The notes under the pieces were generated by a model, which did no database searches, was not told the DNA's origin, and saw only the letters and a list, made by a program, of their open reading frames with translations. The translations under genes and the position numbers were made by a program. From Haematospirillum jordaniae, in the sequence record NZ_CP014526.1: DNA of 32,967 nt; one strand, 5' to 3'. Positions within the stretch are counted from its first letter, which is position 1. Each line of letters begins with the position of its first letter. Below, piece by piece: positions 2,291 through 22,469 of this stretch.

Positions 2291-2296
2291 CGCGTC

Positions 2297-5683: not shown

Positions 5684-5782
5684 ACGCTTTGATCCATGGT
5701 AGTGGCGGTGACGGCAGAGGACCGTTCAGGGCCTTGGAAGGCTCATCACGTCCCCCGCGCCGTCACCGCGCCGGGGGGCCTG

Positions 5783-8255: not shown

Positions 8256-8398
8256 AGTGCACTCCGGATCCGGTTAACAATCTGTACGCCAAACCGTGGT
8301 GCATGCCATGCCTGCGGTGCAAACGTCCGGTGGTTATTTTCGGCTGAAATAACCTTCTTTTCCGTGCCGAACCAAAATGGCTTCGACACTATTGCGCC
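8256..8398. promoter_or_regulatory. Divergent late-promoter region between O (minus strand) and P (plus strand)
   Basis: 143-bp intergenic region between the two divergent late operons. It contains a CCGGATCCGG palindrome (about 8263..8272) and an 8-bp-arm inverted repeat GGTTATTT-N7-AAATAACC (about 8331..8353). In P2 these promoters depend on Ogr, and an Ogr homologue is present at 20423..20680. No exact TGT-N12-ACA was seen. Confidence 0.35.
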
Positions 8399-10174
8399 AT
8401 GACATGCCTCACAGACAGCATAGAAACGGACACCTCAACGCGCCTAATTGCCCGAAATCTGTTCTGGCAGGGCTACACGGTTGCGGAAATATCCCGCACT
8501 TTGTCCCAGCCCTACGGCACCATTGACGCCTGGAAACGCCGGGATGCATGGCAGGACGCGCCGATACTGACGCGCATAGAGGGGCACGTTGAAACCCGCC
8601 TTATGCGACTGGTGGTCAAGGAGCAGAAGACAGATTCCGACCTTGCGGAGATTGACAATCTTGCACGCATTCTGGAGCGCACGGCCCGCATACAACGCTT
8701 CAAGACAACGGGCCGGGAGTCCGACCTCAACCCGGCCCTTGAGAACCGGGCAAAGGGACGGCGCCGGAAGCGGGAGGAGCAAAACGCCATCAGCGATGAG
8801 CAGGTCTGCACTTTGCGCCACGATTTTCACGCCAATCTGTTTGACTACCAGAAGTACTGGCACAGCGTGCGCCATAACCGGGCGCGCAACATTTTGAAGT
8901 CTCGTCAAATTGGTGCCACGTGGTATTTCGCACGGGAAGCGTTTCTCGATGCGGTAGAAACCGGCGATAACCAGATCTTCCTGAGCGCCTCAAAAGCACA
9001 GGCACATGTTTTCAGGAGCTACATCGTTCAGTGGGCCAAGGATGCTGCCGGTATAGAACTGAAAGGCGATCCTATTGTTCTTGCCAACGGGGCCACACTT
9101 TATTTTTTGGGTACCAACAGCAAAACCGCACAGTCCTACCATGGACACGTATACCTCGATGAGTACTCGTGGATCGCAAAATTCCTGGAATTCCGGAAAG
9201 TCGCATCAGCCATGGCGACGCACAAAAAGTGGCGACTGACTTATTTCTCGACGCCATCCGTAATCGGCAGGGATGCTCACGCCTTCTGGTCCGGGGCCGC
9301 CTGGAACAAGGGGCGGGCGAAGGCAGACAAGGTTGACTTGGATACCTCGCACACAGCCCTCAAGGCGGGGGCCACGGGACCGGATGGGCAGTGGCGGCAG
9401 ATTGTTACAATTGAAGATGCAGAGGCGGGCGGCTGTAACCTGTTCGATATTCCGAACCTCAGGCAGGAATACAACGAACAGGATTTCAGGAACCTGTTCC
9501 TGTGCGAATGGGTTGATGACACCACCTCGTTCTTCACCTTCGAGGAAATGCGCCGGTGCATGGTGGACAGCTGGGACGAATGGAGCGATTTCGCCCCGGA
9601 CCTTGCCCGCCCCTTTGGCGACAATCCGGTATGGATTGGTTACGATCCTGCCCAAACCGCTGACAACGCCTCTGTGGTGGTGGTCGCACCTCCGGCCATG
9701 GATGGCGGCAAATTCCGGGTTATCGAAAAACTATTTGTTAACGGTCAGGATTTTCAGGAGCAGGCAAACCGCATTGAAACACTGACCCGACGCTACAACG
9801 TAGCGCACATCGGCATTGACACCACAACCATTGGCGCTGGTGTTTACGAAATGGTGCGCCGTTTCTTTCCGCAGGCCCGCGCCATTACCTACAGCGTCGA
9901 AGTAAAAACCAGAATGGTCCTGAAAACCAAGCAGTTGGTTACCCGTCGGCGTCTGGAGTTCGACGCGGGTTGGACCGATGTTGCCGCCGCTTTCATGGCC
10001 ATTCGCCGCACCACAACAGCTTCTGGACGGCAAACAACTTTTTCCGCCGGTCGGACCAAGGAAACGGGACACGCCGACGTGGCATGGGCCGTGATGCATG
10101 CAATAGATCGCCTGGATTTCGACGGCTTTGAAAAGGCCGAGGGATCTTCGCACGGATTCATGGAGTTTTTCTGA
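8399..10174 (+). CDS. P: Terminase large (ATPase) subunit gpP
   Basis: 591-aa ORF, the size of P2 gpP, first gene of the P-Q operon. Confidence 0.9.
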   Translation: MTCLTDSIETDTSTRLIARNLFWQGYTVAEISRTLSQPYGTIDAWKRRDAWQDAPILTRIEGHVETRLMRLVVKEQKTDSDLAEIDNLARILERTARIQRFKTTGRESDLNPALENRAKGRRRKREEQNAISDEQVCTLRHDFHANLFDYQKYWHSVRHNRARNILKSRQIGATWYFAREAFLDAVETGDNQIFLSASKAQAHVFRSYIVQWAKDAAGIELKGDPIVLANGATLYFLGTNSKTAQSYHGHVYLDEYSWIAKFLEFRKVASAMATHKKWRLTYFSTPSVIGRDAHAFWSGAAWNKGRAKADKVDLDTSHTALKAGATGPDGQWRQIVTIEDAEAGGCNLFDIPNLRQEYNEQDFRNLFLCEWVDDTTSFFTFEEMRRCMVDSWDEWSDFAPDLARPFGDNPVWIGYDPAQTADNASVVVVAPPAMDGGKFRVIEKLFVNGQDFQEQANRIETLTRRYNVAHIGIDTTTIGAGVYEMVRRFFPQARAITYSVEVKTRMVLKTKQLVTRRRLEFDAGWTDVAAAFMAIRRTTTASGRQTTFSAGRTKETGHADVAWAVMHAIDRLDFDGFEKAEGSSHGFMEFF

Positions 10175-11118
10175 TGAGTTTGGAAACCTTTACCTTTGGC
10201 GACCCCCTTCCGGCCATCGACCAAAGAGACATAATGGGCCTCTTCCATTCCGCGTGGTCCGGCAAGTGGTATGAACCGCCCATGAGCTTTGAAGGCTTGG
10301 CTAAAGCGCTGAATTCCAATCCACACCACCAGAGCGCCATACACTACAAGGCGTCACTGCTTGCATCACGATTCAGACCGAGCCGCCTTTTATCGCGACA
10401 GGACTTCCGGCGGCTGGCACTGGATTTTCTTGTGCTTGGAAATGCGTGGGTCGAACGCCGTCAAAACCGCCTTGGCTCGACACTCCGTCTCCAGCCAACG
10501 GTGGGACGCTGGACGCGCGTGACACGAGATGGCGCGGTTGTCCTTCACGAGGGGCAGGATTATGCGATCCGCGCCCCCCATGTCCTGCACCTGATGAATA
10601 TCGACATCCACCAAGAAATCTACGGTATGCCGGACTACACCGCTGCCTTGCAGAGCGCATTTCTGAACGAAGCCGCAACCCTGTTCCGGCGGCGCTATTA
10701 CCTGAACGGCACACACGCGGGCTTTATTCTTTACATTAGTGATCCGCTCAACAGCCAGGATGACGTGGAGAAGCTGCGGGACCAGATGAAAGGGGCCAAG
10801 GGCATCGGGAATTTCAAAAACATGCTCTTGTACGCCCCGAGCGGCAAGAAAGATGGCGTACAACTGATCCCTATTTCTGAGGTCGCCGCCAAGGACGAAT
10901 TTTTCAGCATGAAAAACGTGACGCGGGACGACATTCTGGCCGCCCATCGCGTCCCGCCACAACTCCTTGGTATCGTGCCTTCGAACGCCGGTGGATTTGG
11001 ATCTGTCGAGAATGCTGCCGCCGTTTTCATCGACAACGAGATCAAACCGTTAATGACGGCATTTGAAGTGGTCAATGACTGGTGCGGTGAACAGGCTGTT
11101 GCGTGGATCGAAGCATAA
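10174..11118 (+). CDS. Q: Portal protein gpQ
   Basis: 314-aa ORF with an ATGA-type junction with P; portal-family sequence. Confidence 0.85.
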   Translation: MSLETFTFGDPLPAIDQRDIMGLFHSAWSGKWYEPPMSFEGLAKALNSNPHHQSAIHYKASLLASRFRPSRLLSRQDFRRLALDFLVLGNAWVERRQNRLGSTLRLQPTVGRWTRVTRDGAVVLHEGQDYAIRAPHVLHLMNIDIHQEIYGMPDYTAALQSAFLNEAATLFRRRYYLNGTHAGFILYISDPLNSQDDVEKLRDQMKGAKGIGNFKNMLLYAPSGKKDGVQLIPISEVAAKDEFFSMKNVTRDDILAAHRVPPQLLGIVPSNAGGFGSVENAAAVFIDNEIKPLMTAFEVVNDWCGEQAVAWIEA

Positions 11119-11179
11119 CCGAGTATTGCAGGAAGCTCCTTTATCGGTTTTTTCCGCAATACTCTCTTTGCGTGCTGCC

Positions 11180-11650
11180 TCAGCGCATGGTGAGGCGGCG
11201 GGGCTTCTGAGGCCGGGGCGCGCCCTCTTCAGCGATTGTGTAGTCTTGAGATGCTGCGGGAATTCCCATTTCGCGCCGGGCCAGATCAGCAAGAAAGGCC
11301 GATCGTGTAAGGCCTCGCTCCTTGGCGGCCTGGTCCGTGGCGTCCAGTAATCCGGCATCCATGGTGATATTGGCGCGCACCGTGCGCCCGGTCAGATGGA
11401 TAAACGGCACGGCCAGCAGAAAAGCTCCATTTTTTAAATCTGCCTGAACATCCCGCAGCCGTCGCACGACCTCAAGGGAGCGGGCACGCGGTATGCGCTC
11501 TCCCTCCAGGTGTAGGGCCACAGCCTCGGCGGCATTGGGAAGAAGCTCATCCAGCGTGTCGGCGGCTGAGAAACATCCGGGGACATCCGGAAAGTGTATC
11601 CCGTAGGCACTGTTTTCATCTTGGTGAACAACACCGATGTAATAACGCAT
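11180..11650 (-). CDS. hicB: HicB-family antitoxin (RNase-H-like N-domain plus C-terminal RHH)
   Basis: MRYYIGVVHQDENSAYGIHFPDVPGCFSAADTLDELLPNAAEAVALHLEG is a typical HicB N-domain. C-terminal NITMDAGLLDATDQAAKERGLTRSAFLADLARRE is RHH-like. Sits downstream of hicA. Confidence 0.75.
   Translation of the reverse strand: MRYYIGVVHQDENSAYGIHFPDVPGCFSAADTLDELLPNAAEAVALHLEGERIPRARSLEVVRRLRDVQADLKNGAFLLAVPFIHLTGRTVRANITMDAGLLDATDQAAKERGLTRSAFLADLARREMGIPAASQDYTIAEEGAPRPQKPRRLTMR
11185..11225. other. Candidate cos site (cohesive-end region)
   Basis: About 70 bp past the Q stop sits GGTGAGGCGGCGGGGCTTCTGAGGCCGGGGCGCGCC, resembling the P2 19-nt cohesive end as recalled (GGCGAGGCGGGGAAAGCAC). P2 cos lies about 80 bp from the end of Q. 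A 9-bp-arm inverted repeat GAGTATTGC...GCAATACTC lies just before it (about 11121..11163). Confidence 0.3.
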
Positions 11651-11665
11651 GAACGTCTCTCCTGC

Positions 11666-11893
11666 CTAAAGTAAACCGGCCTGCCGATAAATCTGACGCA
11701 CTGTACCAATCGGAAGGTCCTTTTTGGGATGCGGTACTGTGACAGTCCGGTCCTCGCATTTGAACTTGTGATGGGATCCGGTAGTTCCGACCAGTTCAAA
11801 GCCATGGGCCTCCAGAAGCTTGATCAGTTTTCGGCTGTTTGTCTCAAACACGGTGCCGCTTTGCCTCCCCTTACGCCCAAGGATTATACGCAT
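11666..11893 (-). CDS. hicA: HicA-family mRNA-interferase toxin
   Basis: C-terminus KLIKLLEAHGFELVGTTGSHHKFKCEDRTVTVPHPKKDLPIGTVRQIYRQAGLL is the HicA signature. Start chosen at the ATG near 11893; alternatives are 11923 or an internal start. Confidence 0.65.
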   Translation of the reverse strand: MRIILGRKGRQSGTVFETNSRKLIKLLEAHGFELVGTTGSHHKFKCEDRTVTVPHPKKDLPIGTVRQIYRQAGLL

Positions 11894-11923
11894 TATGATA
11901 CACACGGTCAAGCTTTGGCGCAT

Positions 11924-11939
11924 TATAATACGTATTATA
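11924..11939. promoter_or_regulatory. Palindromic operator/promoter of hicAB (TATAATACGTATTATA)
   Basis: Perfect 16-bp palindrome overlapping TATAAT boxes immediately upstream of hicA. The related direct repeat CGCATTATGATAC is about 30 bp away. Confidence 0.4.
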
Positions 11940-12065
11940 TTCGGGAGAGTGCCCGGCGCAGCCTCACATAGAGGCAGCGATGACGGGACAGCAAAGCAAG
12001 GCAGATACCGCATGCATCCAGCGTGTCAGTAAGGATGGGACGGACACAGCCGCGCCCGCAATAAA

Positions 12066-12100
12066 GACCATTTTCGCAGCGTCACGAAAATGGTGGTGAG
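12066..12100 (-). terminator. Hairpin downstream of the mazEF-like operon
   Basis: ACCATTTTCG-N8-CGAAAATGGT, a 10-bp-arm inverted repeat just after the toxin stop. The T-tract is weak. Confidence 0.3.
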
Positions 12101-12107
12101 ATCTTGC

Positions 12108-12431
12108 TCACCCGAACCCGAGGAACAGCGCCAAAGCCCTATTCACGCTGACCATGGTTTTATCATCCAGCCTGCCAAAAGCCTCGCCCACCTTGTCACG
12201 ACGCACGGTCATAACCTTGTCGACCATGATCTGTGAGGGCTTGCGCAGCCCGTTGTCAGTATCCGGAACAATATCCATGCGGATCAGCGGTGCATCAACC
12301 AATGTGCCTGTCATCAGCAGAACCGAGACGGTTGCCGTCTCAATAAACTGATCGGATTGGATCACCAAGGCCGGGCGCGGCTTCCCGAAGTCGCCCGGCA
12401 AGGAGATAGTCACAAGATCACCGCGCCTCAA
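12108..12431 (-). CDS. PemK/MazF-family endoribonuclease toxin
   Basis: MRRGDLVTISLPGDFGKPRPALVIQSDQF... is a classic MazF/Kid N-terminus. 107 aa. Confidence 0.8.
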   Translation of the reverse strand: MRRGDLVTISLPGDFGKPRPALVIQSDQFIETATVSVLLMTGTLVDAPLIRMDIVPDTDNGLRKPSQIMVDKVMTVRRDKVGEAFGRLDDKTMVSVNRALALFLGFG

Positions 12432-12652
12432 GGTTGCGCCTCATCGTCCAGATCGAGAAGAGCCGCGTCCATAAAGTCATACAAACCAGCGTCTGCCCTG
12501 TCCGCGCGAGCCACAACATGGGCTTGGCGCTGGCATTCCTCTCTGAAACCCGGTTGGCGGGTATCAGGAATCCATATCTGGACTGGCCGGAGTCCCGCAG
12601 CCCTCAGAGCAGCCCGGCGCTTGTTTACCCGCCCAGAGACTGGCGTTGGCAT
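12428..12652 (-). CDS. Cognate antitoxin (MazE/PemI-like, small DNA-binding)
   Basis: 74 aa with a 4-nt overlap with the toxin; acidic C-terminus; RAALRAAGLRPVQIWIPD motif. Confidence 0.55.
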   Translation of the reverse strand: MPTPVSGRVNKRRAALRAAGLRPVQIWIPDTRQPGFREECQRQAHVVARADRADAGLYDFMDAALLDLDDEAQP

Positions 12653-12678
12653 GGGGGCCTCCTGTATATAAGCCTACG

Positions 12679-12692
12679 CGTTACATGTAACG
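12679..12692. promoter_or_regulatory. Operator palindrome CGTTACATGTAACG upstream of the mazEF-like operon
   Basis: Perfect 14-bp palindrome next to TATATA, about 30 bp upstream of the antitoxin start. Confidence 0.4.
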
Positions 12693-12751
12693 TAACCGAT
12701 GGTGGGTGGAGGTGTCAAGACCAGTCTCTTTCCGCGCTTTTTTTAGACCTA

Positions 12752-12835
12752 TCCAGCGAAGACAGCTCACAGCCTTATGCAACTAAATTCAGTTGCATTT
12801 AAAGGATCCTTTCCCTATACTGGGGGCACAAGCTA
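12752..12835. repeat. Direct repeat copy A (about 80 bp), containing the hicAB-2 promoter/operator
   Basis: GCGAAGACAGC..CAGCCTTATGCAACT(A/G)AATT(C/T)AGTTGCAT.TAAAGGATC.TTTCCCTATACT recurs at 13600..13680. It contains the inverted repeat TGCAACTNAATTNAGTTGCA and a TATACT -10-like box, followed by a Shine-Dalgarno and hicA-2. Confidence 0.6.
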
Positions 12836-12849
12836 GGAATTAAGGTGGC

Positions 12850-13104
12850 ATGAACAGGCGTAGCAAGCTGGTGGACCGTTTCCGGGCCTGCCCCAAGGAC
12901 TTCACATGGAAAGAACTGGTGAAGGTTCTGGAAGGCTTTGGGTACACAGAGGTCACCGGCGGCAAGACAGGTGGTTCGCGTCGTCGTTTTATCCATCCCG
13001 ATGCCGCCTCCCTTTCCTTGCACAAGCCGCATCCAGGGACCATCCTGAAGCTGTATGCGCTCGAAGCTGTTTTACAGCATCTGAAAGACGAGGGCCTTCT
13101 ATGA
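12850..13104 (+). CDS. hicA: HicA-family toxin (second copy, long form)
   Basis: FTWKELVKVLEGFGYTEVTGGKTGGSRRRFIHPD...LHKPHPGTILKLYALEAVLQHL is the HicA/YcfA fold signature. Confidence 0.7.
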   Translation: MNRRSKLVDRFRACPKDFTWKELVKVLEGFGYTEVTGGKTGGSRRRFIHPDAASLSLHKPHPGTILKLYALEAVLQHLKDEGLL

Positions 13105-13529
13105 AGACAATGATGGAGTACAAAGGGTATTACGGAAGCGCTGAGTTCAGTCCTGACGACGAGGTTTTTCACGGAAAGCTCGAATTCATCCGCGATCTGG
13201 TCACCTATGAATCAGACGACGCCAAAGGTCTGAAGCGGGCCTTCCATGAAGCCGTTGATGATTACTTGGCGCTTTGCCATGAAAATGGACGCAAGCCGCA
13301 AGTCCCCATGAAAGGCTCCTTCAACGTCCGGGTCGGGCGCGACCTGCATCGCCGCGCCATGCTGAGCGCTCATCGACATGGCGTGGGACTGAACGACACC
13401 GTAACAGAGGCCCTGCGCCGCTACCTGGACGAAGTGGACGAACTGTTACCGGAGCATCTGCGCCATGGCATGCCGGAAGCTCAGGAACACAATGACAAAC
13501 CTGGGCGGCGTCCGCTCGCCTCACGGTAA
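13101..13529 (+). CDS. hicB: HicB-family antitoxin (second copy)
   Basis: ATG at 13101 overlaps the hicA stop (ATGA). N-domain MKTMMEYKGYYGSAEFSPDDEVFHGKLEFIRD... and C-terminal RHH (SFNVRVGRDLHRRAMLSAHRHGVGLNDTVTEALRRYL). Confidence 0.7.
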   Translation: MKTMMEYKGYYGSAEFSPDDEVFHGKLEFIRDLVTYESDDAKGLKRAFHEAVDDYLALCHENGRKPQVPMKGSFNVRVGRDLHRRAMLSAHRHGVGLNDTVTEALRRYLDEVDELLPEHLRHGMPEAQEHNDKPGRRPLASR

Positions 13530-13550
13530 AAGCTGGTAACGGCAGCATCC

Positions 13551-13612
13551 GTGCCGTTTTCCGCCGCTATAGCGGCGCTCCAGAGCGCCTTCCTGAACGA
13601 GGCCGCGAAGAC
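13551..13612 (+). pseudogene. Orphan fragment of a portal (Q-like) gene
   Basis: Encodes ...AAIAALQSAFLNEAA, matching gpQ residues ...YTAALQSAFLNEAA (10640..10680) at about 75% nucleotide identity. It is fused directly to repeat copy B, and no full portal ORF is present there. Confidence 0.5.
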
Positions 13613-13680
13613 AGCCCGCAGCCTTATGCAACTGAATTTAGTTGCATATAAAGGATCTTTTCCCTATACTAATGGCACGG
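13600..13680. repeat. Direct repeat copy B (partner of 12752..12835)
   Basis: Same ~80-bp unit with the TGCAACTGAATTTAGTTGCA inverted repeat. No gene follows on the plus strand. Confidence 0.6.
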
Positions 13681-13932
13681 CAGGAAAAGCAGAAAAAAAC
13701 GAAGTCTCCCCCCGCCACGCTTGCGGCTTAAATATGCCTCACATTCTGCAGTGCAGAGAGTGCCTCTACGCCAGCAGTTGCCTTGCTTTCCACGCACCAT
13801 GGAGACCTGTCAAATCTCTGCATTTTTCTGCTGTTATTCTGCAGTACGCCGCACGGTGATTAACAGGCCGCCAAGGCAATAGCCTATCAACATTACCATA
13901 TCCCCATATTTGTAAATTTACGCATTGCCATA

Positions 13933-14178
13933 TCAGGCGATTGGCGGATAATCATACTTCTTGAACAAATCATTCAGCGCCTCGGTTACAAGCTCCTTTA
14001 TCGAGTTCCGCCGCATCTCAAGTCGCATTTTGTCAACTTGGTAATGCGCCTCTGCCGGTATCTCGACGATCAATTTCTTTGTCGGTCGCTCAATTGGCGT
14101 AAGCCCCGGGTCAATGGTGACAGGCGTTTTAGGCGTGAGTTTATTATGCAATGCAGCGTGCAGGCTTGGCTTTGCCAT
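13933..14178 (-). CDS. parG: ParG-like RHH partition protein (centromere-binding)
   Basis: From the internal start: MAKPSLHAALHNKLTPKTPVTIDPGLTPIERPTKKLIVEIPAEAHYQVDKMRLEMRRNSIKELVTEALNDLFKKY. This is a small basic protein with an RHH fold, immediately downstream of parA. The start is uncertain (overlaps parA by about 35 nt). Confidence 0.5.
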   Translation of the reverse strand: MAKPSLHAALHNKLTPKTPVTIDPGLTPIERPTKKLIVEIPAEAHYQVDKMRLEMRRNSIKELVTEALNDLFKKYDYPPIA

Positions 14179-14803
14179 GTGTCTTGCTCTCCATCTGGTT
14201 AATAATAAAACGGTATAATGCTGCGATTTCTTCGGCGGCTTTACTGTCTGATCCAAGCTCCTGAACGCCCTTGCCCATTGTGAAGGCATGAACAAAGGCC
14301 ATGCGATTGCCAATGGTGACGGGGGCAAGCGCAACGCCGTACCCTCTGATCGCCTCGGCGGCCTCCTCCGTAAGACTCCCGCGCGGTGGAGTTTGGGTCA
14401 GAACGGAAACAGCGGGCTTGCCTGCAAGCTGGGCTATTTTCACACTCGAACTGATTGCGCGTAGATCAACAAGCGACGGCTTGCACGGGATCAAGATCAG
14501 GTCAGCAAAGGCAGCGGCATCCAGAGCATCTTTTTGTGAGTGCGGAGCCGTATCAAAAATGACAAAGGCTGCTCCACTCTGGCGGGCAGTTTCGATGTAA
14601 TGCGGAATGCGGGCGGCATGAAGGGAAATGACTGCGGGTGACTCATCGTCTCGGCTGTCCTTCCACCCCATAGACGATGCCTGCGGATCAAGATCGAAGA
14701 TTGCGGCCGCCCTACCATCACGTTCAGCAGCGATTGCAAGATTAATGGCAAGGGTCGTTTTACCGGCCCCTCCTTTTTGCGATATGACAGCTATTGTCCT
14801 CAT
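14144..14803 (-). CDS. parA: ParA/ParF-type partition ATPase (small type Ib)
   Basis: Deviant Walker A box KGGAGKTT near the N-terminus (MRTIAVISQKGGAGKTTLAINLA). About 219 aa. Confidence 0.8.
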   Translation of the reverse strand: MRTIAVISQKGGAGKTTLAINLAIAAERDGRAAAIFDLDPQASSMGWKDSRDDESPAVISLHAARIPHYIETARQSGAAFVIFDTAPHSQKDALDAAAFADLILIPCKPSLVDLRAISSSVKIAQLAGKPAVSVLTQTPPRGSLTEEAAEAIRGYGVALAPVTIGNRMAFVHAFTMGKGVQELGSDSKAAEEIAALYRFIINQMESKTHGKAKPARCIA

Positions 14804-14804
14804 A

Positions 14805-15060
14805 CCATATCCCCATATTGCCACATTTAATGTTTTTTACATGGCCATATTTACTGATTGTCATACTGCCATAATTATCCAAATTTACAACCCCTTATCA
14901 GGGTACACCTTCGTCGTCGTAAAAAACGTTGTAAGCGTCTTTGCATTCGTCAGAGCATAGCTCCTGCACGTCCACCGATACTATATAGGTATACTTATGG
15001 GGGATTATTTCAGCCGTATCGCGATGCTAAGGCTTTAATCATTAATTGGTGTATACGTAT
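14805..15060. repeat. AT-rich repeat array upstream of parA (candidate centromere/par operator)
   Basis: Multiple (T/G)GCCATA(T/A) and CCATAT motifs (ccatatccccatattgccacat..ggccatatttactgattgtcatactgccataatt). The 16-mer ACCATATCCCCATATT recurs downstream of parG at about 13889. Confidence 0.35.
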
Positions 15061-15353
15061 TTATTTATGATAAAAAGAATACCTTGAACTATAAAATACA
15101 ACATATGATTTTTGAAGTTAGATTCATCCATGAAAAAGATGACTCAATAAACTAAGTCAGATTAATAGCATTAATGGGGTTGTCAGAAAAAAGCCTCTGT
15201 GCTGACATGTAGACCACATTCAACTTCACCTGTATCGATATCAGCGTCATTCACAAGCACAGCTAGAAAAAGCTGATCCGTTTTAATGTTTAGGAACAAT
15301 GGAAAACCAAGCATCACTTGCGTGGGACAACATCAGTACGAGAGAAAATTATA

Positions 15354-15743
15354 ATGTCGAAGAAACGTGTTTTTGTAAGTTTTGACTACGACAATGACAA
15401 TGAATTAAAGGAATTGCTCGTTGGGCAAGCAAAAAATCCCGACACGCCGTTCGAACTCGCAGACTGGTCTATAAAAGAACACCTGACAGGGGATTGGAAA
15501 GATAAAGCAAAAAAAAGAATTCGGTCTGTAGACCAAGTAATTGTTCTCTGCGGCGAGAGCACACACAAGGCAAATGGCGTTGCCGATGAACTTAGAATAA
15601 CTCAAGAAGAGGGAAAAGATTATTTCTTGTTGAAAGGTTATAAGGATAAAGAATGTACAAAACCGACATCAGCTCTTAAAACAGATAAAATGTATACATG
15701 GAATTGGGACAATCTCAAGGCGTTAATAAATGGGAACCGCTAG
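15354..15743 (+). CDS. TIR-like domain protein (DUF1863/ThsB-like)
   Basis: MSKKRVFVSFDYDNDNELKELLVGQAKNP... and VDQVIVLCGESTHKANGVADELRITQEEGKDYFLL match the DUF1863 TIR-like hallmark (RVFISF-DYD start; vivLiGe-T---WV--Ei motif with the catalytic-position Glu). The gene and its surroundings are markedly AT-rich compared with the rest of the window. Confidence 0.7.
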   Translation: MSKKRVFVSFDYDNDNELKELLVGQAKNPDTPFELADWSIKEHLTGDWKDKAKKRIRSVDQVIVLCGESTHKANGVADELRITQEEGKDYFLLKGYKDKECTKPTSALKTDKMYTWNWDNLKALINGNR

Positions 15744-15748
15744 ATCCC

Positions 15749-16249
15749 ATGATTGGCGTCTGGAACAGAGAAAGCAAGGATTGCATCGAACGCGAAAAAG
15801 AGATCGCAACAGAGCAATACAAACTTTATGTTGAGATGGCTGATAAGATCAGCGATCGGCGCGTACATGCAAACAAATTTTATGTTGCCCTCAATTCTAG
15901 CCTAATAGCTTTTTACGGCTTCGCTACAGCCAAGAACTCCATCGTCCAAAATGATTCTTGGCTGTATCTAGTGCTTATAGCCGGAATTCTTATTTGTTTT
16001 TTGTGGATCGAAACCGTCAAATCATACAAGAATATTAATACAGTCAAATTCAAGGTGATACATGAAATAGAGGAACACCTTCCTCTTGCACTATATAAAT
16101 ACGAGTGGGAGCTTGCCAAGCAAGGCGATGGATCAAAATACCGCCCTACATCGCATATTGAAATGATTGTTCCATGGGTATTTGGATTTCTTTACGTAAT
16201 AATTGTATCATGCAAATGCTACTCTTATTTTTTTGAACTTTATCATTAA
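15749..16249 (+). CDS. Small membrane protein with 2-3 TM helices, SLATT-like; candidate effector partner of the TIR protein
   Basis: Starts 5 nt after the TIR stop (same operon). Hydrophobic helices FYVALNSSLIAFYGFATA, WLYLVLIAGILICFLWIETV and IVPWVFGFLYVIIVSC, with a charged N-terminal helix and a helical segment between TM2 and TM3. The size (~166 aa) and topology fit SLATT-type 2TM effector domains that associate with TIR/SMODS/SLOG genes. Same low-GC composition as the TIR gene. Confidence 0.45.
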   Translation: MIGVWNRESKDCIEREKEIATEQYKLYVEMADKISDRRVHANKFYVALNSSLIAFYGFATAKNSIVQNDSWLYLVLIAGILICFLWIETVKSYKNINTVKFKVIHEIEEHLPLALYKYEWELAKQGDGSKYRPTSHIEMIVPWVFGFLYVIIVSCKCYSYFFELYH

Positions 16250-16254
16250 ATGTC

Positions 16255-16300
16255 CTTGATCGGGGGCGATGTTTGCCGGACCCCGATCAAGCGATTTATT
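16255..16300 (+). terminator. Rho-independent terminator after the TIR/TM operon
   Basis: CTTGATCGGGG-N-CCCCGATCAAG stem followed by a TTTATTTTT run. Confidence 0.5.
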
Positions 16301-16455
16301 TTTCTTAAAGCACCTACGCATAAACGGCCATTTACAAGCCGGTCCGGTTTCGAGACACCGGGCACGGCAACAGGCGGCGTCCACGCTCTCAAAAACCACG
16401 CTTGAAACCATGTCGGTTCTTGGTGATGTTTACGATGCGTTTTGAGGGAGATGTC

Positions 16456-17010
16456 ATGCTGATCGGCTACGCCCGCGTTTCGACGCGAGACCAGACCACA
16501 GAGCTACAGACAGAGGCGTTGTCGGCAGCCGGTTGCGAGCGCGTGTTCGAGGACCAGACCAGCGGCAGCCGTGAAGACCGTCCCGGCCTTTCCAGTGCGC
16601 TGGATTACCTGCGCACTGGTGACACACTGGTGGTGTGGAAGCTGGACCGTCTGGGCCGGACCGTGAAGCAGCTTGTGCATCTGGTTGACAGCCTTCAGGC
16701 CCGTGGCATCCACTTCCGCAGCCTCACCGACGGCATAGATACCGGAAGCCCGGCAGGCCGGTTCTTCTTCCACATCATGGCCAGCCTTGCCGAGATGGAG
16801 CGCGACCTGATCGCCGAAAGAACACGCGCCGGACTGGACGCCGCCCGGAAAGCCGGACGCAAAGGAGGGCGCCCCGCAAAGATGACCCCCGGCAAGATCA
16901 CGGCAGCCCGCAAGCTTCTGGAAACCGGAACACCCGCCCGCACCGTCGCCGAGAGTCTCGGCGTGTCACCCGCTACACTGTACCGCTGGCTGCCTGCCCA
17001 GACGGCTTAG
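16456..17010 (+). CDS. Small serine recombinase (resolvase/invertase family)
   Basis: MLIGYARVSTRDQTTELQ...GDTLVVWKLDRLGR is the catalytic Ser motif and resolvase N-domain, with a C-terminal HTH (VAESLGVSPATLYRWL). Likely start at 16456 with Shine-Dalgarno GAGGGAG. 184 aa. Confidence 0.85.
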   Translation: MLIGYARVSTRDQTTELQTEALSAAGCERVFEDQTSGSREDRPGLSSALDYLRTGDTLVVWKLDRLGRTVKQLVHLVDSLQARGIHFRSLTDGIDTGSPAGRFFFHIMASLAEMERDLIAERTRAGLDAARKAGRKGGRPAKMTPGKITAARKLLETGTPARTVAESLGVSPATLYRWLPAQTA

Positions 17011-17016
17011 CGTGCT

Positions 17017-17550
17017 TTATTTTCCGTTTTCTGAGACGCCGCTTTTATCAGCTATAGCTTCGCGCAAGAGAGCGTTAAGTCGGTCCTGCCATCCATCGCC
17101 CTCAGAGTGAAGATACTCAAGGATATCAGGATCGAGACGAACGGGTGCTGTTCTTGTTACACGCGCCAAGGGAGAACAGCCGCTCCGTACGGGGATTTTT
17201 TCAAGCGCTTCTGCCCATTCAGGGATATCTGTGTCCTGTTCTTGTTTTTCTACAGACATTTTCTGAATGGCCAGTCTCAAACCCATGGTGCGCAAAATCG
17301 CCATCAAGCTGCGAATCTCCGGGTTTCCTTTGTGCGACAGGGTACGATACAACTGGTTCGGGTTCAGCGCTGCCGCCTTTGCCACCTGACGCACCCCCCC
17401 GAATGCTGCGGCCATCTGGCGCAGAGCTATCAGCAGTTCCCCTTGATCACCATCTTCCAGAATGCTGTTCAGCAATGCCTCGGCATAAGCAGGATCATTA
17501 CGAAACACTTCTGCCATAGCTGTATCATGTTCCCGGTCTTTCATTGTCAA
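17017..17550 (-). CDS. HTH antitoxin (addiction-module antidote family) with a C-terminal BrnA-like extension
   Basis: The N-terminal ~100 aa (FRNDPAYAEALLNSILEDGDQGELLIALRQMAAAFGGVRQVAKAAALNPNQLYRTLSHKGNPEIRSLMAILRTMGLRL) match the antidote partner of RelE/ParE-type killers. The C-terminal ~70 aa (VRLDPDILEYLHSEGDGWQDRLNALLREAI) resemble the BrnA motif. Immediately downstream of the toxin. Confidence 0.55.
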   Translation of the reverse strand: MTMKDREHDTAMAEVFRNDPAYAEALLNSILEDGDQGELLIALRQMAAAFGGVRQVAKAAALNPNQLYRTLSHKGNPEIRSLMAILRTMGLRLAIQKMSVEKQEQDTDIPEWAEALEKIPVRSGCSPLARVTRTAPVRLDPDILEYLHSEGDGWQDRLNALLREAIADKSGVSENGK

Positions 17551-17556
17551 ACCTCT

Positions 17557-17874
17557 TTAACGTTTCTGCCAGTCTTGCCAGTACGAACAAGCGCGCTCAA
17601 TGTCGGCCTTCTGCCTTCGCTTGTCCCCACCGCAGAGCAGAAGGACAATTTCCTTGCCTGCTCTTGCAAAGTAAACGCGATAGCCTGGACCAACGTCGAT
17701 GCGCAGCTCATACACACCATCACGCAATGGTTTATGATCACCAAAATTACCGAGTTCCATGCGGTAAATACGACGATCAATGGCAACCAGGGCCTTGGTG
17801 TCCCGTATTTGCTCACGCCATTCGGCAAAGTGGTCCCGGCCATTTGAATCGAGATAGTGTCGTATCGTCTGCAT
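17557..17874 (-). CDS. RelE/ParE-superfamily toxin (addiction-module killer)
   Basis: 105 aa, upstream of the HTH antitoxin with a 6-nt gap. Sequence features are typical of the killer-protein family (MQTIRHYLDSNGRDHFAEWREQI...GVYELRIDVGPGYRVYFARAGKEIVLLLCGGDKRRQ). Confidence 0.7.
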   Translation of the reverse strand: MQTIRHYLDSNGRDHFAEWREQIRDTKALVAIDRRIYRMELGNFGDHKPLRDGVYELRIDVGPGYRVYFARAGKEIVLLLCGGDKRRQKADIERACSYWQDWQKR

Positions 17875-17885
17875 GACGGGGATTA

Positions 17886-17899
17886 TCGTTTATAAACGA
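17886..17899. promoter_or_regulatory. Operator palindrome TCGTTTATAAACGA upstream of the relE/antitoxin operon
   Basis: Perfect 14-bp palindrome about 12 bp upstream of the toxin start codon. Confidence 0.4.
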
Positions 17900-18204
17900 C
17901 ATTGTGTCAAGCGTTATTCTTTTGAGCCGATGGGAGTGACAGCCTGCATATTGCTTACCAAGCCATACCGCTCCTCCAGATGGTGCAAACAAAAAACTCA
18001 ACCATCCGTCCCTTGTTCGATCCGCGCCGGAGGCGAGGGCGAACATGCCCGTAAGGGCGTGGACGTCCCTCGTCCCGACGCCTTCAGAAGACCAGCGCGC
18101 GCAACGGAGTGCAACAGGCCGAAGGCGCACCGCAGCCACGCGCAGCACGTAGTGCGAGCATGGCGAGAAGCCACCTGTTGCACGGAGAGAGCACGTTGGT
18201 ATTA

Positions 18205-18262
18205 GGCTCCCTCCCCGATGACGGGGAGGGGTGTGCGCGACCCTAGCGCACGCCTTTTTATA
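18205..18262 (+). terminator. Tandem hairpins with a T-run (plus-strand terminator)
   Basis: CCCTCCCCGATGACGGGGAGGG hairpin followed by GTGCGCGACCCTAGCGCAC + GCCTTTTTAT. Confidence 0.4.
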
Positions 18263-18400
18263 TTTATTTGTTTGTTTAAAGGTTCTCTCATCAGTTTCTG
18301 AACCCTAGAAAGTCCGGAAAAGGGGGTTCTGGTCCGTAAAATCCGGATTCTTGTTTGTGTTTCTGTGGATAACTTTATTTTGGGCTTCAAAAACGACAGC
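18255..18400. other. AT-rich origin-like region (candidate oriV / DNA-unwinding element) 3' of the repA-like gene
   Basis: tttatatttatttgtttgtttaaagg...ttattttgggcttcaaaaacgac is a strongly AT-rich island inside an otherwise ~60% GC replicon. Short TCCGGA-containing repeats. Only spurious small ORFs. Confidence 0.3.
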
Positions 18401-18452
18401 AAAACAGGGGGAGAAGGTGCCGGAAAAGGCCCGGATTTGCTGTCCGCACAAA

Positions 18453-18482
18453 CGGCTACGCCCGCTCAAGGGCGGGTTTTAG
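18453..18482 (+). terminator. Rho-independent terminator (GCCCGCTCAAGGGCGGG + TTTT)
   Basis: Perfect 7-bp stem with T-run, 20 bp from the 3' end of the convergent repA-like gene. Confidence 0.45.
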
Positions 18483-18504
18483 AGGGACAGATTGTAACTG
18501 GCTG

Positions 18505-19191
18505 CTAGTCGGGCGGCTTGCGCTTGCGGGCCTCTTTCTGGTCCAGAATACGCCGATCCAGATCAGCCTGCTTCTGTTCATGGGCATCCCCGTAGCGTTC
18601 GAGAAGCGCAAGGCCCTCACGGACCTCACCCACCTCCCGCGCGGCCTTGTACATTTCACGCGCACTCGGCCACTCGAAGGGGTAGCGGTCAAAGACCTTT
18701 GACTCATCCATCTTCAGTTGCCACCGCGCCGGAGACAGAAAGGCGTATGCGTTGGATACTTGCTTCAGGAGGAACCGACCGTTATCAAAGGTCCGTTTGA
18801 TGCAGCGGTTGACCGCGAAGATAATGCCCTGTTCCCGAAGGAATTTCAGCGCCTTGTAGACCGTTGTCTGACCGTAGCCCGCCTTCTCTCCAAGGGTCTT
18901 GTAAGAGCATGTCAGTTCGCCGGTCTCCCAATTGATCATCTCGACAAAAGCCCGATAGACAGCGAGCACCGAGCGGCCTCGTCCTTCATAACGCTGCACC
19001 TCTGGGCTTGCTGCGAGTTGCTCCTTCCAGCGCAAAACCGTCTTTCTCGGCGGCGGCTTGCCGAACTTGACAAGATGCTTCTCGAACGCGCCGCGACGGC
19101 ACTGCCACTTCGGACCGTCCGGCAAGCCGAACGGGGGCGTGAGCCGGAAGCCCGGTGAAACTGTGTCTGGAGGGGAACCTGAAAGAAACAA
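18505..19191 (-). CDS. Replication initiator-like winged-HTH protein (plasmid RepA/RPA-like)
   Basis: Core RSVLAVYRAFVEMINWETGELTCSYKTLGEKAGYGQTTVYKALKFLREQGIIFAVNRCIK is the wHTH typical of alphaproteobacterial RepA-type initiators. Last gene of the early operon, where P2/186 carry replication genes. The true start is uncertain. Confidence 0.45.
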   Translation of the reverse strand: MFLSGSPPDTVSPGFRLTPPFGLPDGPKWQCRRGAFEKHLVKFGKPPPRKTVLRWKEQLAASPEVQRYEGRGRSVLAVYRAFVEMINWETGELTCSYKTLGEKAGYGQTTVYKALKFLREQGIIFAVNRCIKRTFDNGRFLLKQVSNAYAFLSPARWQLKMDESKVFDRYPFEWPSAREMYKAAREVGEVREGLALLERYGDAHEQKQADLDRRILDQKEARKRKPPD

Positions 19192-19300
19192 AGACCGCGC
19201 CCTACCTTGGGGCCGGGAGAGCTTTTTTTGCTGGAGTCTCGAGAGTGATTGACTTGGCTGAAGCCGCGCCCTATCTTGGGCTTTGCGGTAACGCCTGCAT
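19192..19300. repeat. Direct repeats upstream of the repA-like gene (iteron/operator candidates)
   Basis: CGCGCCCTACCTTGGGG (about 19196) and CGCGCCCTATCTTGGGC (about 19266), 70 bp apart. Confidence 0.3.
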
Positions 19301-19522
19301 TCACTGCCTAAGACCAGCGTAAGTCTTCCGGCTATGATTACTACACACAGTGGATGTGCCGCAAACCGTTCGTCGCGGTAGGCAACACAGCCCGGGGTTC
19401 TCCCCGGGCTTTCTCTTTGTCGTTTATTTTGGGCGCGGTGTAAAGCCTTGCGTGTAAAACGGGCCTAGCCGTGCGCTGTGACCGCGCAGCGTCCAAACAT
19501 TCACGTCTAAAAAGAAAGCCCA

Positions 19523-20056
19523 TCATTCCGCCTCTACAATCTTGTTGTTTTCATCGAGCGTGTACCAAGTGTCGGGTTTGATGCCATTCTCACCGACAAC
19601 CCCGACGACAACGCGCCCATGATCTGAACCGCGCGCCAAAACCCGAAACGCGATTACGCCGCCATCACTTGCCCTGGCCTTTCCGCCGCCAAGCGCATCA
19701 TCGACGAACACCAGAGCCAAGCCCGCGTGCGCTGCCTCTGCCCAACCGCTTTCACCTGCGATCGCAACATCCCAACCAATCGAATGGCCATCACAACCAG
19801 CAATCGCTATGTGATGTGAGTCAGCACATCCGCCCTCGCCAACGATCGCAACGTCCGACCACAAAGCGAGTCCACCGACCGGTGCAAAACACACAGGTCC
19901 GTAGGAAGACAATACGGAGAGCCGGTAATCAAAGCCGCGATTGAAAGCGATCGTGCCACCATAACTCTCAACTTCCATGCAGAGGTCCGAATCATCAGCC
20001 GCAGCACCCCAAACACGCTTGCCTCTGCGGAATCGGTCACGCCAGCCCATTACCAC
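19523..20056 (-). CDS. Hypothetical beta-helix-like repeat protein (early operon)
   Basis: 177-aa ORF with degenerate short repeats (DVAIVGEGGCADSHHIAIAGCDGHSIGWDVAIAGESGW). Co-directional with ogr and repA. Function unknown. Confidence 0.3.
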   Translation of the reverse strand: MVMGWRDRFRRGKRVWGAAADDSDLCMEVESYGGTIAFNRGFDYRLSVLSSYGPVCFAPVGGLALWSDVAIVGEGGCADSHHIAIAGCDGHSIGWDVAIAGESGWAEAAHAGLALVFVDDALGGGKARASDGGVIAFRVLARGSDHGRVVVGVVGENGIKPDTWYTLDENNKIVEAE

Positions 20057-20409
20057 CCTCCTTCATCGGATTGCTTTGAACCTCTGGCCTTGACCCCATA
20101 ACGGGCATACAGGCAGTCGGCAGCCTGCTGTGGTGTCAGGTAGTTTTTCCGTCGACTCGCGCGGTATTCGTTGCATCGCCTTAGAAAGAAGATCGCGACC
20201 AGAATCGCCAAGCCGCACCACTGCATGGCCTGGCTTCCCAAAAGCCAGCCGGCACCAATCACTGCAAAAATCAGCATGAAGGTGACGGCATCGCGCCGCC
20301 ACGACTGCTGCACCGTGGTTTGCAGGATGATTATTTTAACCTTGTCGCGCCAACCAAGGCTTATGCTCTCGGTCGCGTGAACACCTTCTACACCGTGAGT
20401 CGTCTTCAT
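20050..20409 (-). CDS. Hypothetical 2-TM membrane protein (early operon)
   Basis: From the internal start MKTTHGVEG...; helices VTFMLIFAVIGAGWLLG and WCGLAILVAIFFL. Confidence 0.3.
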   Translation of the reverse strand: MKTTHGVEGVHATESISLGWRDKVKIIILQTTVQQSWRRDAVTFMLIFAVIGAGWLLGSQAMQWCGLAILVAIFFLRRCNEYRASRRKNYLTPQQAADCLYARYGVKARGSKQSDEGGW

Positions 20410-20422
20410 GGCGCGCACCTCG

Positions 20423-20680
20423 TCACAGGAATGGAAACTGCATTTGATTCGGCGAAACACCGACAGCGAACGGAACGCCGACCCGCCGCCGACCCGGCAA
20501 CGAACTTTCGTTGAGAGAGCGAACCGGCGTCAGCGCGGCCACAAACATTGCGGCGCAATCCTCGCTGGTGCACAGATACGTAATCTCGCGGTACACGTCG
20601 GTAACCTGTCGGGTCTTGACCGTCCGACACCGGACGCCGCAATACGGACACTGCGTCGAATTGCTCGGACCTGCGCTCAT
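20423..20680 (-). CDS. ogr: Ogr/Delta-family zinc-finger late-gene transcription activator
   Basis: MSAGPSNSTQCPYCGVRCRTVKTRQVTDVYREITYLCTSEDCAAMFVAAL carries the C-x2-C-x22-C-x4-C pattern and the RTxxTRxVTD...FVAxL signature of P2 Ogr / 186 B. Confidence 0.75.
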   Translation of the reverse strand: MSAGPSNSTQCPYCGVRCRTVKTRQVTDVYREITYLCTSEDCAAMFVAALTPVRSLNESSLPGRRRVGVPFAVGVSPNQMQFPFL

Positions 20681-21105: not shown

Positions 21106-21151
21106 GATAGACCCCGCGCGGAGTTAACGGCACAGTGACCCGATGAGTGAC

Positions 21152-22042
21152 AAGAAACAGAATATTGCGTTTGCACCCATGCTCCCCCGTCTCCGGTTGT
21201 GGCCGGAGCAAAGTTCCCGGGAAGAGGCGCTGGTGCTCCGGGGGCTAAAAAAACCGCAACAAGTCGGCCCCGCACACCTTTGGCCTTTCGGCTTGGACAT
21301 GCGCGTGCGGCCCCCGGAACATGGGCATGAAAACACCGCCTTGCGGGGCGGGACCGCTTGTTGTGGGAGATTTTTAGGCTCCTGCCCCGAACCTTACCCG
21401 CAACAGGCGTGGAATGCAAGCACCGCTGTGCTGGCAAAAAGGGCGTGGCAAGAACAGAATATTGCGCGTGCACCCATGCTCCCCCGTCTCCGGTTGTGGC
21501 CGGAGAAACCACACCGGAAGAAGGTGCAGGCGCTCCGGGGGTTAAAACCGCCGCAACAAGTCGGCCCCGCACACCTTTGGCCTTTCGGCTTGGACATGCG
21601 CGTGCGGCCCCCGGAACATGGGCATGAAAACACCGCCTTGCGGGGCGGGACCGCTTGTTGTGGGAGGGTTTTAAGCTCCTGCCCCGAACGTTACCCGCAA
21701 CAGGCGTGGAATGCAAGCACCGCTGTGCTGGCAAAAAGGGTGTGGCAAGAACAGAATATTGCGTTTGCACCCATGCTCCCCCGTCTCCGGTTGTGGCCGG
21801 AGCAAAGTTCCCGGGAAGGGGTGCTGGTGCTCCGGGGGATAGAAACACCGCAACAAGTCGGCCCCGCACACCTTTGGCCTTTCGGCTTGGACATGCGCGT
21901 GCGGCCCCCGGAACATGGGCATGAAAATACCGCCTTGCGGGGCGGGACCGCTTGTTGTGGGAGGTTTCTATTCTCCTGCCCCGAACGTTACCCGCAACAG
22001 GCGTGGAATGCAAGCACCACTGTGCTGGCAAAAAGGGCGTGG
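21152..22042. repeat. Tandem repeat array: 3 copies of a 297-bp unit (about 90-95% identical)
   Basis: Units begin GAACAGAATATTGCG(T/C)(T/G)TGCACCCATGCTCCCCCGTCTCCGGTTGTGGCCGGAG at about 21154, 21452 and 21749 (period 297 = 99 codons). Long ORFs are open on both strands purely because of the 3n periodicity. Confidence 0.85.
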
Positions 22043-22108: not shown

Positions 22109-22363
22109 TCATGACTGAATCCCTTCGACAATCCGTCCATGATGGCGACCCAGAGCGTGAGGGGCAGAAGAAGGTAGGCTGGTGTGGAACGCTATCGCAC
22201 GGATGATCTTGTTCGCCGTAGAAACAGACACAGATGCAGAGCCACGCTTCCAGCGTGTGAACGAAGAGCGTGAAACACCGGCATCCCTGCACACCTGGTT
22301 GATGCTAAGGCCCACAGCTTTGGCAATGCGCTCAATCTCATGTGGTGTAACAGGGTGCAACAC
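22109..22363 (-). CDS. Cro/Apl/Cox-like HTH protein, first gene of the early lytic operon
   Basis: 84 aa; HTH IERIAKAVGLSINQVCRDAGVSRSSFTRWKRG; divergent from the CI-like repressor gene. Confidence 0.55.
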   Translation of the reverse strand: MLHPVTPHEIERIAKAVGLSINQVCRDAGVSRSSFTRWKRGSASVSVSTANKIIRAIAFHTSLPSSAPHALGRHHGRIVEGIQS

Positions 22364-22469
22364 AATCAGCCTCCCTTGTGATCAGGGGGCGATTTTAGGC
22401 ACGCCTTTCTAGCAGGGCAAGCGTTTTAGTGATTTTTATAATTTACCATATTGCTAAATCAGTTCTCAA
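22364..22469. promoter_or_regulatory. Lysis-lysogeny switch region (divergent promoters/operators)
   Basis: 106-bp AT-rich intergenic region between divergent repressor-like genes; TATAAT at about 22433. Confidence 0.4.

Follow-up and report, generated by a model that had tools for sequence, protein, structure and literature searches.

The DNA of Haematospirillum jordaniae analyzed here (32,967 bp, record NZ_CP014526.1; this whole stretch is referred to as the window) possesses a P2-type set of phage genes, and the portal gene Q is followed by an interval (11119-18504) filled with toxin-antitoxin (TA), partition, resolvase and TIR/membrane protein genes. Is this interval a collection of accessory cargo at the old/tin hotspot of phage P2, as an earlier note on the sequence had proposed, or does it belong in part to the machinery by which the element maintains itself? 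The analysis favors the second possibility. With a probability of about 0.78, the window is a complete circular P2-like phage-plasmid of H. jordaniae, and the region 11119-19191 is a lysogeny-side, cos-proximal module composed of a maintenance skeleton and exchangeable cassettes. This phage-plasmid reading is drawn from the absence of integrase and gpA, the circular plasmid record, the presence of a ParA gene with a ribbon-helix-helix (RHH) partner, a resolvase and five TA pairs, and a Rep-like gene. The plasmid-maintenance skeleton appears to replace the integrase and the gpA/B replication system of P2. It would consist of a candidate origin with a Rep-like initiator (rep), a small serine resolvase for multimer resolution (res) and the ParA/RHH partition pair (par). 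The exchangeable cassettes would be placed between the skeleton pieces and on both sides of cos. The stretch from Q to cos holds three TA modules, a TIR/8xMP pair adjoins ParA, and a killer/antidote pair adjoins the resolvase.

Circular replicon with P2-type late genes

The window is deposited as a plasmid of H. jordaniae H5569. When its last and first bases were joined, a single uninterrupted open frame of 427 codons was obtained on the minus strand, in which an internal methionine starts a sequence with the typical N-terminus of the P2 H tail fibre. Two window proteins, AY555_10085 and AY555_10105, are recorded as '(plasmid) [Haematospirillum jordaniae]' on a replicon of 32,967 bp. As the ends join in frame and the records name a plasmid, the window is a complete circular replicon. 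To compare it with P2, every annotated P2 protein (record AF063097) was used as tblastn query against the window with a cut-off of E<=0.01. Homologues of Q, P, O, N, M, X, R, S, V, W, J, I, H, FI, FII, T, U, D and ogr were found in the order of P2, and the Pfam assignments of the P2-type late genes were in agreement with tblastn. At the same cut-off, no match in the window was found for P2 int, C, cox, B, A, orf78-91, old, tin, fun(Z) and orf30. Phage_integrase had no match among 34 scanned window open reading frames (ORFs), nor among the called genes of a sister-strain contig covering window positions 173-21118. The left anchor of the interval is Q itself (10174-11118, plus strand; Pfam Phage_portal), which is 47% identical to P2 gpQ.

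Such a gene set could also belong to a plasmid which carries a defective P2-type prophage or a tailocin-like cluster, in which case the interval would be plasmid backbone without any phage-hotspot logic. The plasmid-type rep/par/res/TA set agrees with this, and the 303-kb plasmid of this strain has a tail-tube fragment next to a Rep paralogue, a sign that such elements decay there. We consider this explanation very improbable, as the head, packaging, lysis, tail and ogr genes are complete, intact and in P2 order, the cos core is conserved, and the size of 33 kb equals one P2 headful. Moreover, comparison with a sister element shows a backbone that is 96% conserved and a cargo that is exchanged, which fits selection on the phage genes.

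A P2-like phage with this lifestyle is already known. The P2-like Burkholderia phage KS14 (32.3 kb; Kisquattuordecimvirus, HM461982) lacks an integrase and carries ParA as well as a small serine recombinase (PMC3091744), and plasmid preparation showed that it lysogenises as a plasmid (Lynch et al. 2010, PMC3091744). The window and KS14 are both P2-like myoviruses of ~32 kb without tyrosine integrase. They share a Gin/Cin/resolvase-type recombinase (gp6 in KS14, 50% identical to that of the window) and ParA (28% identical), and in KS14 the genes for replication initiation and partition come directly after Q. They differ in that KS14 retains a large CHC2 zinc-finger primase-like gene, its recombinase adjoins the repressor outside the Q interval, and its interval has neither a TA stack nor a TIR pair. 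If the phage-plasmid reading holds, more natural P2-like plasmid prophages would stand alongside KS14.

Position of cos and the P2 hotspots

A P2-type cos site is present by sequence. The cos region extends from 13689 to 13790 on the plus strand with the core CCCCGCCACGCTTGC at 13710-13724. The core CCCCGCCACGC aligns with the annotated P2 cohesive end and has a single occurrence in the window, at 13710, about 2.6 kb after Q. Another 17 loci with a Q relative each contain it once, and its orientation to Q is always that of the window. The motif CCCCGCCNCGCNTGC is present exactly once in each of 14 loci with ~50%-identical portals, always in the orientation of Q and 125 to ~1,900 bp downstream of the end of the Q match. 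The core was also found in the closer relatives L029, L031/L032 and L033/L034, which are introduced below. A candidate cos directly beside Q (the G-rich 11190-11215) was rejected; it has the wrong orientation and is not conserved. The 61 bp downstream of Q in the window contain only an inverted repeat followed by a T-run.

In P2, the core begins ~175 bp after Q. The P2 gap between Q and cos measures 186 bp and is occupied by a terminator only, without genes, and old and tin are situated on the other side of cos. As the cos core of the window lies at 13710 and not beside Q, the interval is, judged by sequence, divided in two regions, Q-cos and cos-Rep. The Q-cos region contains three TA modules, and several relatives also have inserts there. 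The old/tin side of cos contains the partition pair, TIR/8xMP, the resolvase and the killer/antidote pair. Just upstream of cos, a 36-nt stretch (13572-13607) encodes in frame AALQSAFLNEAA, the portal protein residues encoded at 10642-10677, with ~28/36 nucleotides identical; recombination may have left it behind as the remnant of a piece of the portal gene.

The earlier note had located the cargo at the old/tin hotspot, between cos/Q and the early region. The position stands, as it corresponds to the published hotspot, the cos-proximal locus between gpA and gpQ where P2 carries old and tin (Rousset et al. 2022, PMC9122126). The surroundings assumed for it do not, since cos is 2.6 kb away from Q and the P2 early operon is missing (no int, C, cox, B, A). 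The likeness to the P2 hotspot consists in the map position relative to portal and cos and in a variable content which includes defence-type genes. In the window, Q ends at 11118, cos lies at 13710 and the Rep-like gene at 18505-19191, with the gpA anchor absent. The far anchor is thus a plasmid Rep-like gene instead of gpA. Further differences are that part of the content is conserved backbone, that cargo is found on both sides of cos, and that there is no old or tin homologue. A TIR + transmembrane (TM) system has been described at the gpA-gpQ hotspot in E. coli phage AC1 (PMC9122126). The model of the published hotspot survey demands integrase and GpA, and possible uncatalogued phage-plasmids are mentioned there; surveys anchored on these two genes would miss or mis-score elements like the present one. 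The idea of a cos-proximal P2 hotspot is in this way extended beyond Enterobacteria to Alphaproteobacteria.

The second classic hotspot of P2, the Z/fun position, is empty in the window, as the earlier note had stated. The gap between the G-position gene (31687-32160), which has weak similarity to tail-fibre assembly proteins, and the sheath gene FI (30491-31663; Pfam; 59% identical to P2 FI) is 23 bp (31664-31686), against 2,377 bp in P2, where G ends at 15274, FI starts at 17652 and fun(Z) lies between them.

Exchangeable slots and probable maintenance genes of the interval

Every convincing ORF in 11180-17874 is a TA, partition, resolvase or TIR/membrane gene by Pfam; the TA, par, res and TIR/TM genes named by the earlier note were all recovered within the interval given there. 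Five type II TA pairs are present in the window, namely HicA/HicB twice, PemK/MazE-like, Gp49/HI1420-antidote and ParE/helix-turn-helix (HTH). The first variable slot holds HicB (11180-11650) and HicA (11666-11890) on the minus strand (HicB_lk_antitox 1.9e-27, HicA_toxin 4.8e-22). It is followed, also on the minus strand, by a PemK/MazF toxin (12108-12431) with a MazE-like antitoxin (12428-12652; Pfam), which belong to an island common to the sister element. Slot 2 holds HicA (12850-13104) and HicB (13101-13529) on the plus strand (Pfam). Slot 4 contains a Gp49-type killer (17557-17874) and an HI1420-type antidote (17017-17550) on the minus strand (Pfam), the antidote being fused to a BrnA-like C-terminus, and a promoter-like site (11/12) is situated upstream of the killer gene at 17910-17882. 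The TA modules are probably addiction modules which stabilise the plasmid prophage, and possibly act additionally as abortive-infection modules.

A 74-nt direct repeat flanks the second HicAB module. Its first copy (12756-12829) contains a 23-nt palindrome, ATGCAACTNAATTNAGTTGCAT, and starts at the breakpoint 12762 relative to the sister element, while the second copy (13605-13678, 88% identical) lies just before the conserved cos block; the outer ends of the two copies are breakpoints against the sister element. The repeat may represent an operator, a site of recombination or the scar of an insertion.

The claim that the interval holds all accessory cargo was not borne out. The fifth TA pair, a ParE toxin (25207-25455; ParE_toxin 3.1e-09) with an HTH antitoxin (24768-25190; HTH_31 1.8e-12) on the minus strand, lies between D and the repressor together with an HTH gene (24544-24771) and a WYL-like gene (23544-24056). 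An HTH module of this region (24137-24758) is present, inverted and 85% identical, directly after Q in the relative L031 (10325-10946); therefore one cassette occupies different slots in related elements.

Relatives were obtained by protein search with Q. They comprise the sister element L029, a 33,612-bp contig of Haematospirillum sp. 15-248 (portal 97% identical), L031 (81%) and L033, a P2-like element recorded as the 40,965-bp Azospirillum melinis plasmid CP171991.1 (portal 61% identical; positions 13490-34515 of the record were compared). GTDB genomes and IMG/VR searched by portal protein yielded only ~50%-identical, mostly betaproteobacterial loci, which are useful for cos and not for the slots. 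Identical-protein look-up of Q gave only near-identical strains carrying the same cargo. Megablast of the window against phage and plasmid collections found no full-length relative, with matches only for the resolvase and the Rep gene.

The window and the sister element are collinear with 96% nucleotide identity up to 11133. Beyond this point they have four islands in common: 12093-12762 (PemK/MazE), 13689-13790 (cos, 92% nucleotide identity), 16286-17001 (resolvase) and 17969-20526 (94.6% from 17969 on), the last of which comprises non-coding DNA, the Rep-like gene and the genes downstream of it. At the protein level the resolvase is 100%, Rep 88%, ParA 53%, and PemK and MazE 93% and 100% identical. 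Between the islands the content is replaced. The sister has an unrelated 156-aa gene in place of the first HicAB module, IS200/IS605 tnpA and tnpB with an N6/N4 methyltransferase in place of the second, another RHH-ParA allele (ParA 53% identical) without TIR pair in place of RHH-ParA and TIR/8xMP, and three unrelated genes in place of the killer/antidote pair. In L031, Q is followed by the HTH module, the second HicB (95% identical; L031/L032), cos and ParA, after which the contig ends. In the Azospirillum element, Q and cos are followed in turn by a set of three genes, a resolvase with 41.5% identity, a ParA-like gene and an initiator of RepA_C type. The three-gene set is a complete PADLOC candidate, PDC-M55 A/B/C (E 1.7e-29 to 8.2e-75), and the element looks like a second genus with P2-like phage-plasmids. 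Among the 14 distant relatives, no cargo gene of the window was found after Q, except the TIR/8xMP pair in one of them (L010).

The comparison confirmed that the content of the interval is variable between relatives. The alignment of the element to its relatives, suggested in the earlier note as a check, gave the expected variable content, with four slots replaced against the sister, and established Q as a conserved anchor, with 96% collinearity to 11133; the expected early-operon anchor is absent. Partition and resolvase functions are fixtures of the interval in this lineage and the replication initiator is probably so too. Since these functions are kept at this position in relatives, par and res, and probably rep, are backbone and not accessory genes. 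The earlier note had counted par and res among the accessory cargo; they are kept by function in L029 and L033, and ParA in L031, with rep probably also retained. It had also held that conserved core genes shared by relatives at this position would speak against cargo. Such conservation was found for par and res, and probably for rep, but not for the TA and TIR cassettes. An 'accessory' interval can thus conceal the maintenance machinery of the element itself.

These observations bear directly on the simplest alternative, an ordinary P2-like temperate phage in which the whole interval from Q to the early genes is dispensable accessory or defence cargo at the old/tin hotspot. Its position is that of the published gpA-gpQ hotspot (PMC9122126; 10.64898/2026.02.27.708500), and the TA and TIR cassettes do differ between relatives. 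However, integrase and gpA/B are found nowhere in the window, and retention of the par and res functions, and probably of rep, in the interval extends over the sister, L031 and the Azospirillum plasmid. In addition, the deposited records name plasmids, and the interval is split by cos. The alternative is therefore regarded as quite unlikely.

For the phage-plasmid reading, the partition module, the resolvase and the Rep-like gene are of most importance; par, res and rep fit a plasmid-prophage lifestyle because the element lacks integrase and gpA. The partition module consists of a ParA ATPase (14144-14824) and a small RHH protein (13933-14178) on the minus strand (Pfam CbiA, AAA_31, ParA and Antitox_RHH). 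L029, L031 and L033 have the partition function in this place too, L029 with another allele. The small serine recombinase of the resolvase/invertase type (16457-17010, plus strand) matches Pfam Resolvase (2.2e-48) and HTH_7. A stretch of 42 bp at its 3' end (17003-17044) is 95% identical to 'mobile element protein' regions of three P1-type phage records.

The right-hand boundary of the interval is formed by a winged-helix Rep-like protein (18505-19191, minus strand), the candidate replication initiator. Adjoining it, on the side of its stop, are 630 bp of non-coding DNA (17875-18504; no ORF with family match), the candidate plasmid origin. This DNA has an AT-rich dip at 18250-18400 (GC 39-43%), in which the only perfect copy of the DnaA box TTATCCACA in the window is located (18364-18372), ~130 bp beyond the stop of the Rep-like gene. 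An exhaustive HMMER search gathered 163 representatives of the Rep-like family, and 44 of the 61 aligned members match HTH_36. In annotated plasmid and phage collections, the homologues are confined to plasmid replicons; 66 PLSDB records were found, 64 of them from Zymomonas, and the three matches in the phage collection are all Zymomonas plasmid sequences. In the 4,023-bp Zymomonas plasmid pZMOB05, the homologue is the sole sizeable gene besides a ToxN toxin. In the homologue contexts looked up (L001, L036/L037 and L038), a ParA gene is located within 1-2 kb. These features suggest that the Rep-like protein could drive plasmid replication. No NCBIfam match was found for the protein.

The first of these contexts is on the 303-kb plasmid of the same strain (L001, NZ_CP014527.1, positions 1-10847), where an 88%-identical Rep-like paralogue lies near the record start. 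Its neighbours are a phage tail-tube gene fragment, a RelE/RelB pair, ParA/RHH and a large serine recombinase, and the region may be a decayed or cointegrated relative of the phage-plasmid.

The set as a whole resembles plasmid maintenance cores (type Ib ParA/RHH, resolvase and TA addiction) in domain content and in clustering by a Rep gene and an AT-rich DnaA-box region. The difference is that it is embedded in a phage genome, between the portal and the immunity/late-control genes.

Several points weigh against the phage-plasmid reading, and the Rep assignment is its weakest link. The HTH_36 match of the Rep-like protein scores 18 bits, below the Pfam cutoff, and its profile against PDB sequences found only generic winged-helix/HTH regulators. 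For a structure search, the single-sequence AlphaFold model had a pLDDT of 52 and was too poor to search with. No convincing iterons were found around the gene, as only one 17-nt repeat is present, occurring twice. The DnaA box is a single site which was found post hoc. The Rep of KS14 (gp37) is unrelated to that of the window (hhalign probability 0.3%), which also counts among the differences between the two elements. Finally, the plasmid status is taken from the deposited record and the gene content.

The TIR/8xMP pair and further features

Directly after ParA lies a low-GC islet (14825-16249, plus strand) composed of a 529-bp AT-rich leader, a ThsB-type TIR gene (15354-15743, plus strand; Pfam ThsB_TIR, PF08937, 3e-08) and a gene for a three-helix membrane protein (15749-16249, plus strand), whose sole family match is Pfam 8xMP (PF24838, 1.4e-41). 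The GC content is 36-40% in the islet and 38-40% in the TIR/8xMP pair, against 57% in the genome. The pair is absent from the sister element. In the distant P2-like locus L010, it is present in the Q-side interval with 57% and 42% identity. In five of five further loci (L024-L028), a ThsB_TIR gene is located directly upstream of 8xMP; they represent four independent contexts, as two loci share one protein pair. Two of these loci are chromosomal, and the others lie on a conjugative-plasmid fragment, in a prophage-like region and on a small contig; integrase, transposase, restriction-modification or conjugation genes are found near the pairs. In the metagenomic, conjugative-plasmid-like L024, the TIR-8xMP pair (5615-7018) comes directly after ParA and is followed by a second TIR gene of TIR_2 type. 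Its ParA-adjacent placement echoes that in the window. From its distribution, the pair can be said to behave as mobile defence cargo, a view which the comparison supports.

In an alignment of the window TIR with type IV-associated ThsB proteins, glutamate E79 is invariant, and from general knowledge of TIR domains we take it to be the catalytic residue. In type IV Thoeris, the signal is a cyclic ADP-ribose isomer which activates a caspase-like effector. By analogy, the same signal could be used by the TIR/8xMP pair. The window TIR is 62-66% identical to ThsB proteins paired with 'Caspase - Type IV' effectors (Table S1, 10.64898/2025.12.03.692087), and this closeness gives a ready hypothesis for the signal. 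The other 8xMP-linked TIR subtype (L025-L028) resembles TIRs which are listed with a predicted '3TM' effector in the same Table S1, and 8xMP is probably this '3TM' effector class. The preprint of December 2025 predicts 29 Thoeris configurations and validates types V-XI; in types II, V, VII and X, the effectors are as a rule membrane proteins with predicted rings (10.64898/2025.12.03.692087). The 8xMP-type effectors are not in its tested set (Table S2), and the window effector is outside the validated Thoeris effector types ThsA to ThsL.

The AlphaFold model of 8xMP, built with 56 homologues, was confident (pLDDT 87), and its three long helices and one short helix agree with three membrane spans. 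A homologue found in Deferrisoma camini bears the NCBI name 'RipA family octameric membrane protein'. As in Thoeris, the pair is a two-gene operon in which the ThsB-type TIR precedes the effector. It departs from Thoeris in the effector itself, a PF24838 8xMP protein outside the tested effectors and the PADLOC models. Most likely, it is a Thoeris-like system in which the ThsB-type TIR would make an NAD-derived signal upon infection, possibly the type IV one. This signal would gate an oligomeric membrane effector, 8xMP, and the resulting membrane collapse would abort the infection.

Some results count against this assignment as well. The ThsB models of PADLOC gave only a weak match to the window TIR (E 1.9e-05), and PADLOC lacks an 8xMP model. 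No PDB sequence matched 8xMP and its model had no significant PDB fold match, so the pore mechanism is proposed by analogy only. No anti-phage test of TIR-8xMP, and nothing of relevance on 8xMP as an octameric or RipA-type membrane protein, was found in the literature searched.

It could be argued that the TA modules and the TIR/8xMP pair serve plasmid addiction by post-segregational killing and have no part in anti-phage defence. Five TA pairs on a low-copy 33-kb replicon fit addiction well, and 8xMP gives no PADLOC match. On the other hand, TIR-8xMP pairs are also chromosomal and lie near restriction-modification genes and integrases, the window TIR falls in a protein cluster that validated type IV Thoeris systems employ, and a TIR signalling enzyme with a membrane effector has no antitoxin-like logic. 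In addition, the equivalent slot in Azospirillum carries the three-gene PADLOC defence candidate. An addiction-only role is thus considered unlikely, and we read the TIR/8xMP pair as real, though predicted, defence cargo. In this respect the earlier note, which had regarded the TIR/TM pair as genuine defence cargo, gained independent support from L010, the conserved operon, the low GC content and the similarity to type IV ThsB. With two genes in ~1.4 kb, the pair is a compact natural test case for a predicted Thoeris configuration.

Each component of the element is of a known kind, be it the P2 hotspot, the KS14-type plasmid prophage, TA addiction or the Thoeris-like TIR. New are their combination in an alphaproteobacterial lineage of at least two genera, the mapped slots, the insertion slot between Q and cos, and a natural example of TIR-8xMP. 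A more far-reaching proposal, which we hold tentatively and at somewhat less than even odds, is that TIR-8xMP is a working Thoeris type, in which a type IV-like ThsB is combined with a ring-forming three-helix membrane protein in place of the caspase-like protease, and that the alphaproteobacterial P2-like phages are an unrecognised phage-plasmid lineage (Haematospirillum and Azospirillum), in which the P2 hotspot merged with a plasmid backbone and a second slot, Q-cos, exists that is absent from E. coli P2. If true, it would mean effector swapping on a single signal, carried by phage-plasmids.

Outside the interval, Pfam identified the large terminase (8399-10174), the Ogr activator (20423-20680) and D (25579-26559). 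A CI/Cro-like pair at 22109-23522 differs from the P2 early genes. Between the Rep-like gene and ogr (19523-20460), two conserved genes code for a glycine-rich repeat protein of 177 aa and a membrane protein of 136 aa, and Pfam, NCBIfam and PADLOC gave no match for either. Of these 938 bases, the first 105 are outside the nucleotide block common to L029 (block end 20526), and the remainder is covered in L029 by gene calls matching in size and position. The stretch 21147-22042, which separates an HTH gene from the Cro-like gene, consists of 3.0 tandem copies of a 297-bp unit with 92% matches. This tandem repeat has no Rfam family, no Pfam match on its long ORFs and no PLSDB match, and its RNA folding is not in excess (z -0.33). 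Long spurious ORFs run through both strands of this repeat, and the short-read contigs of sister strains end there.

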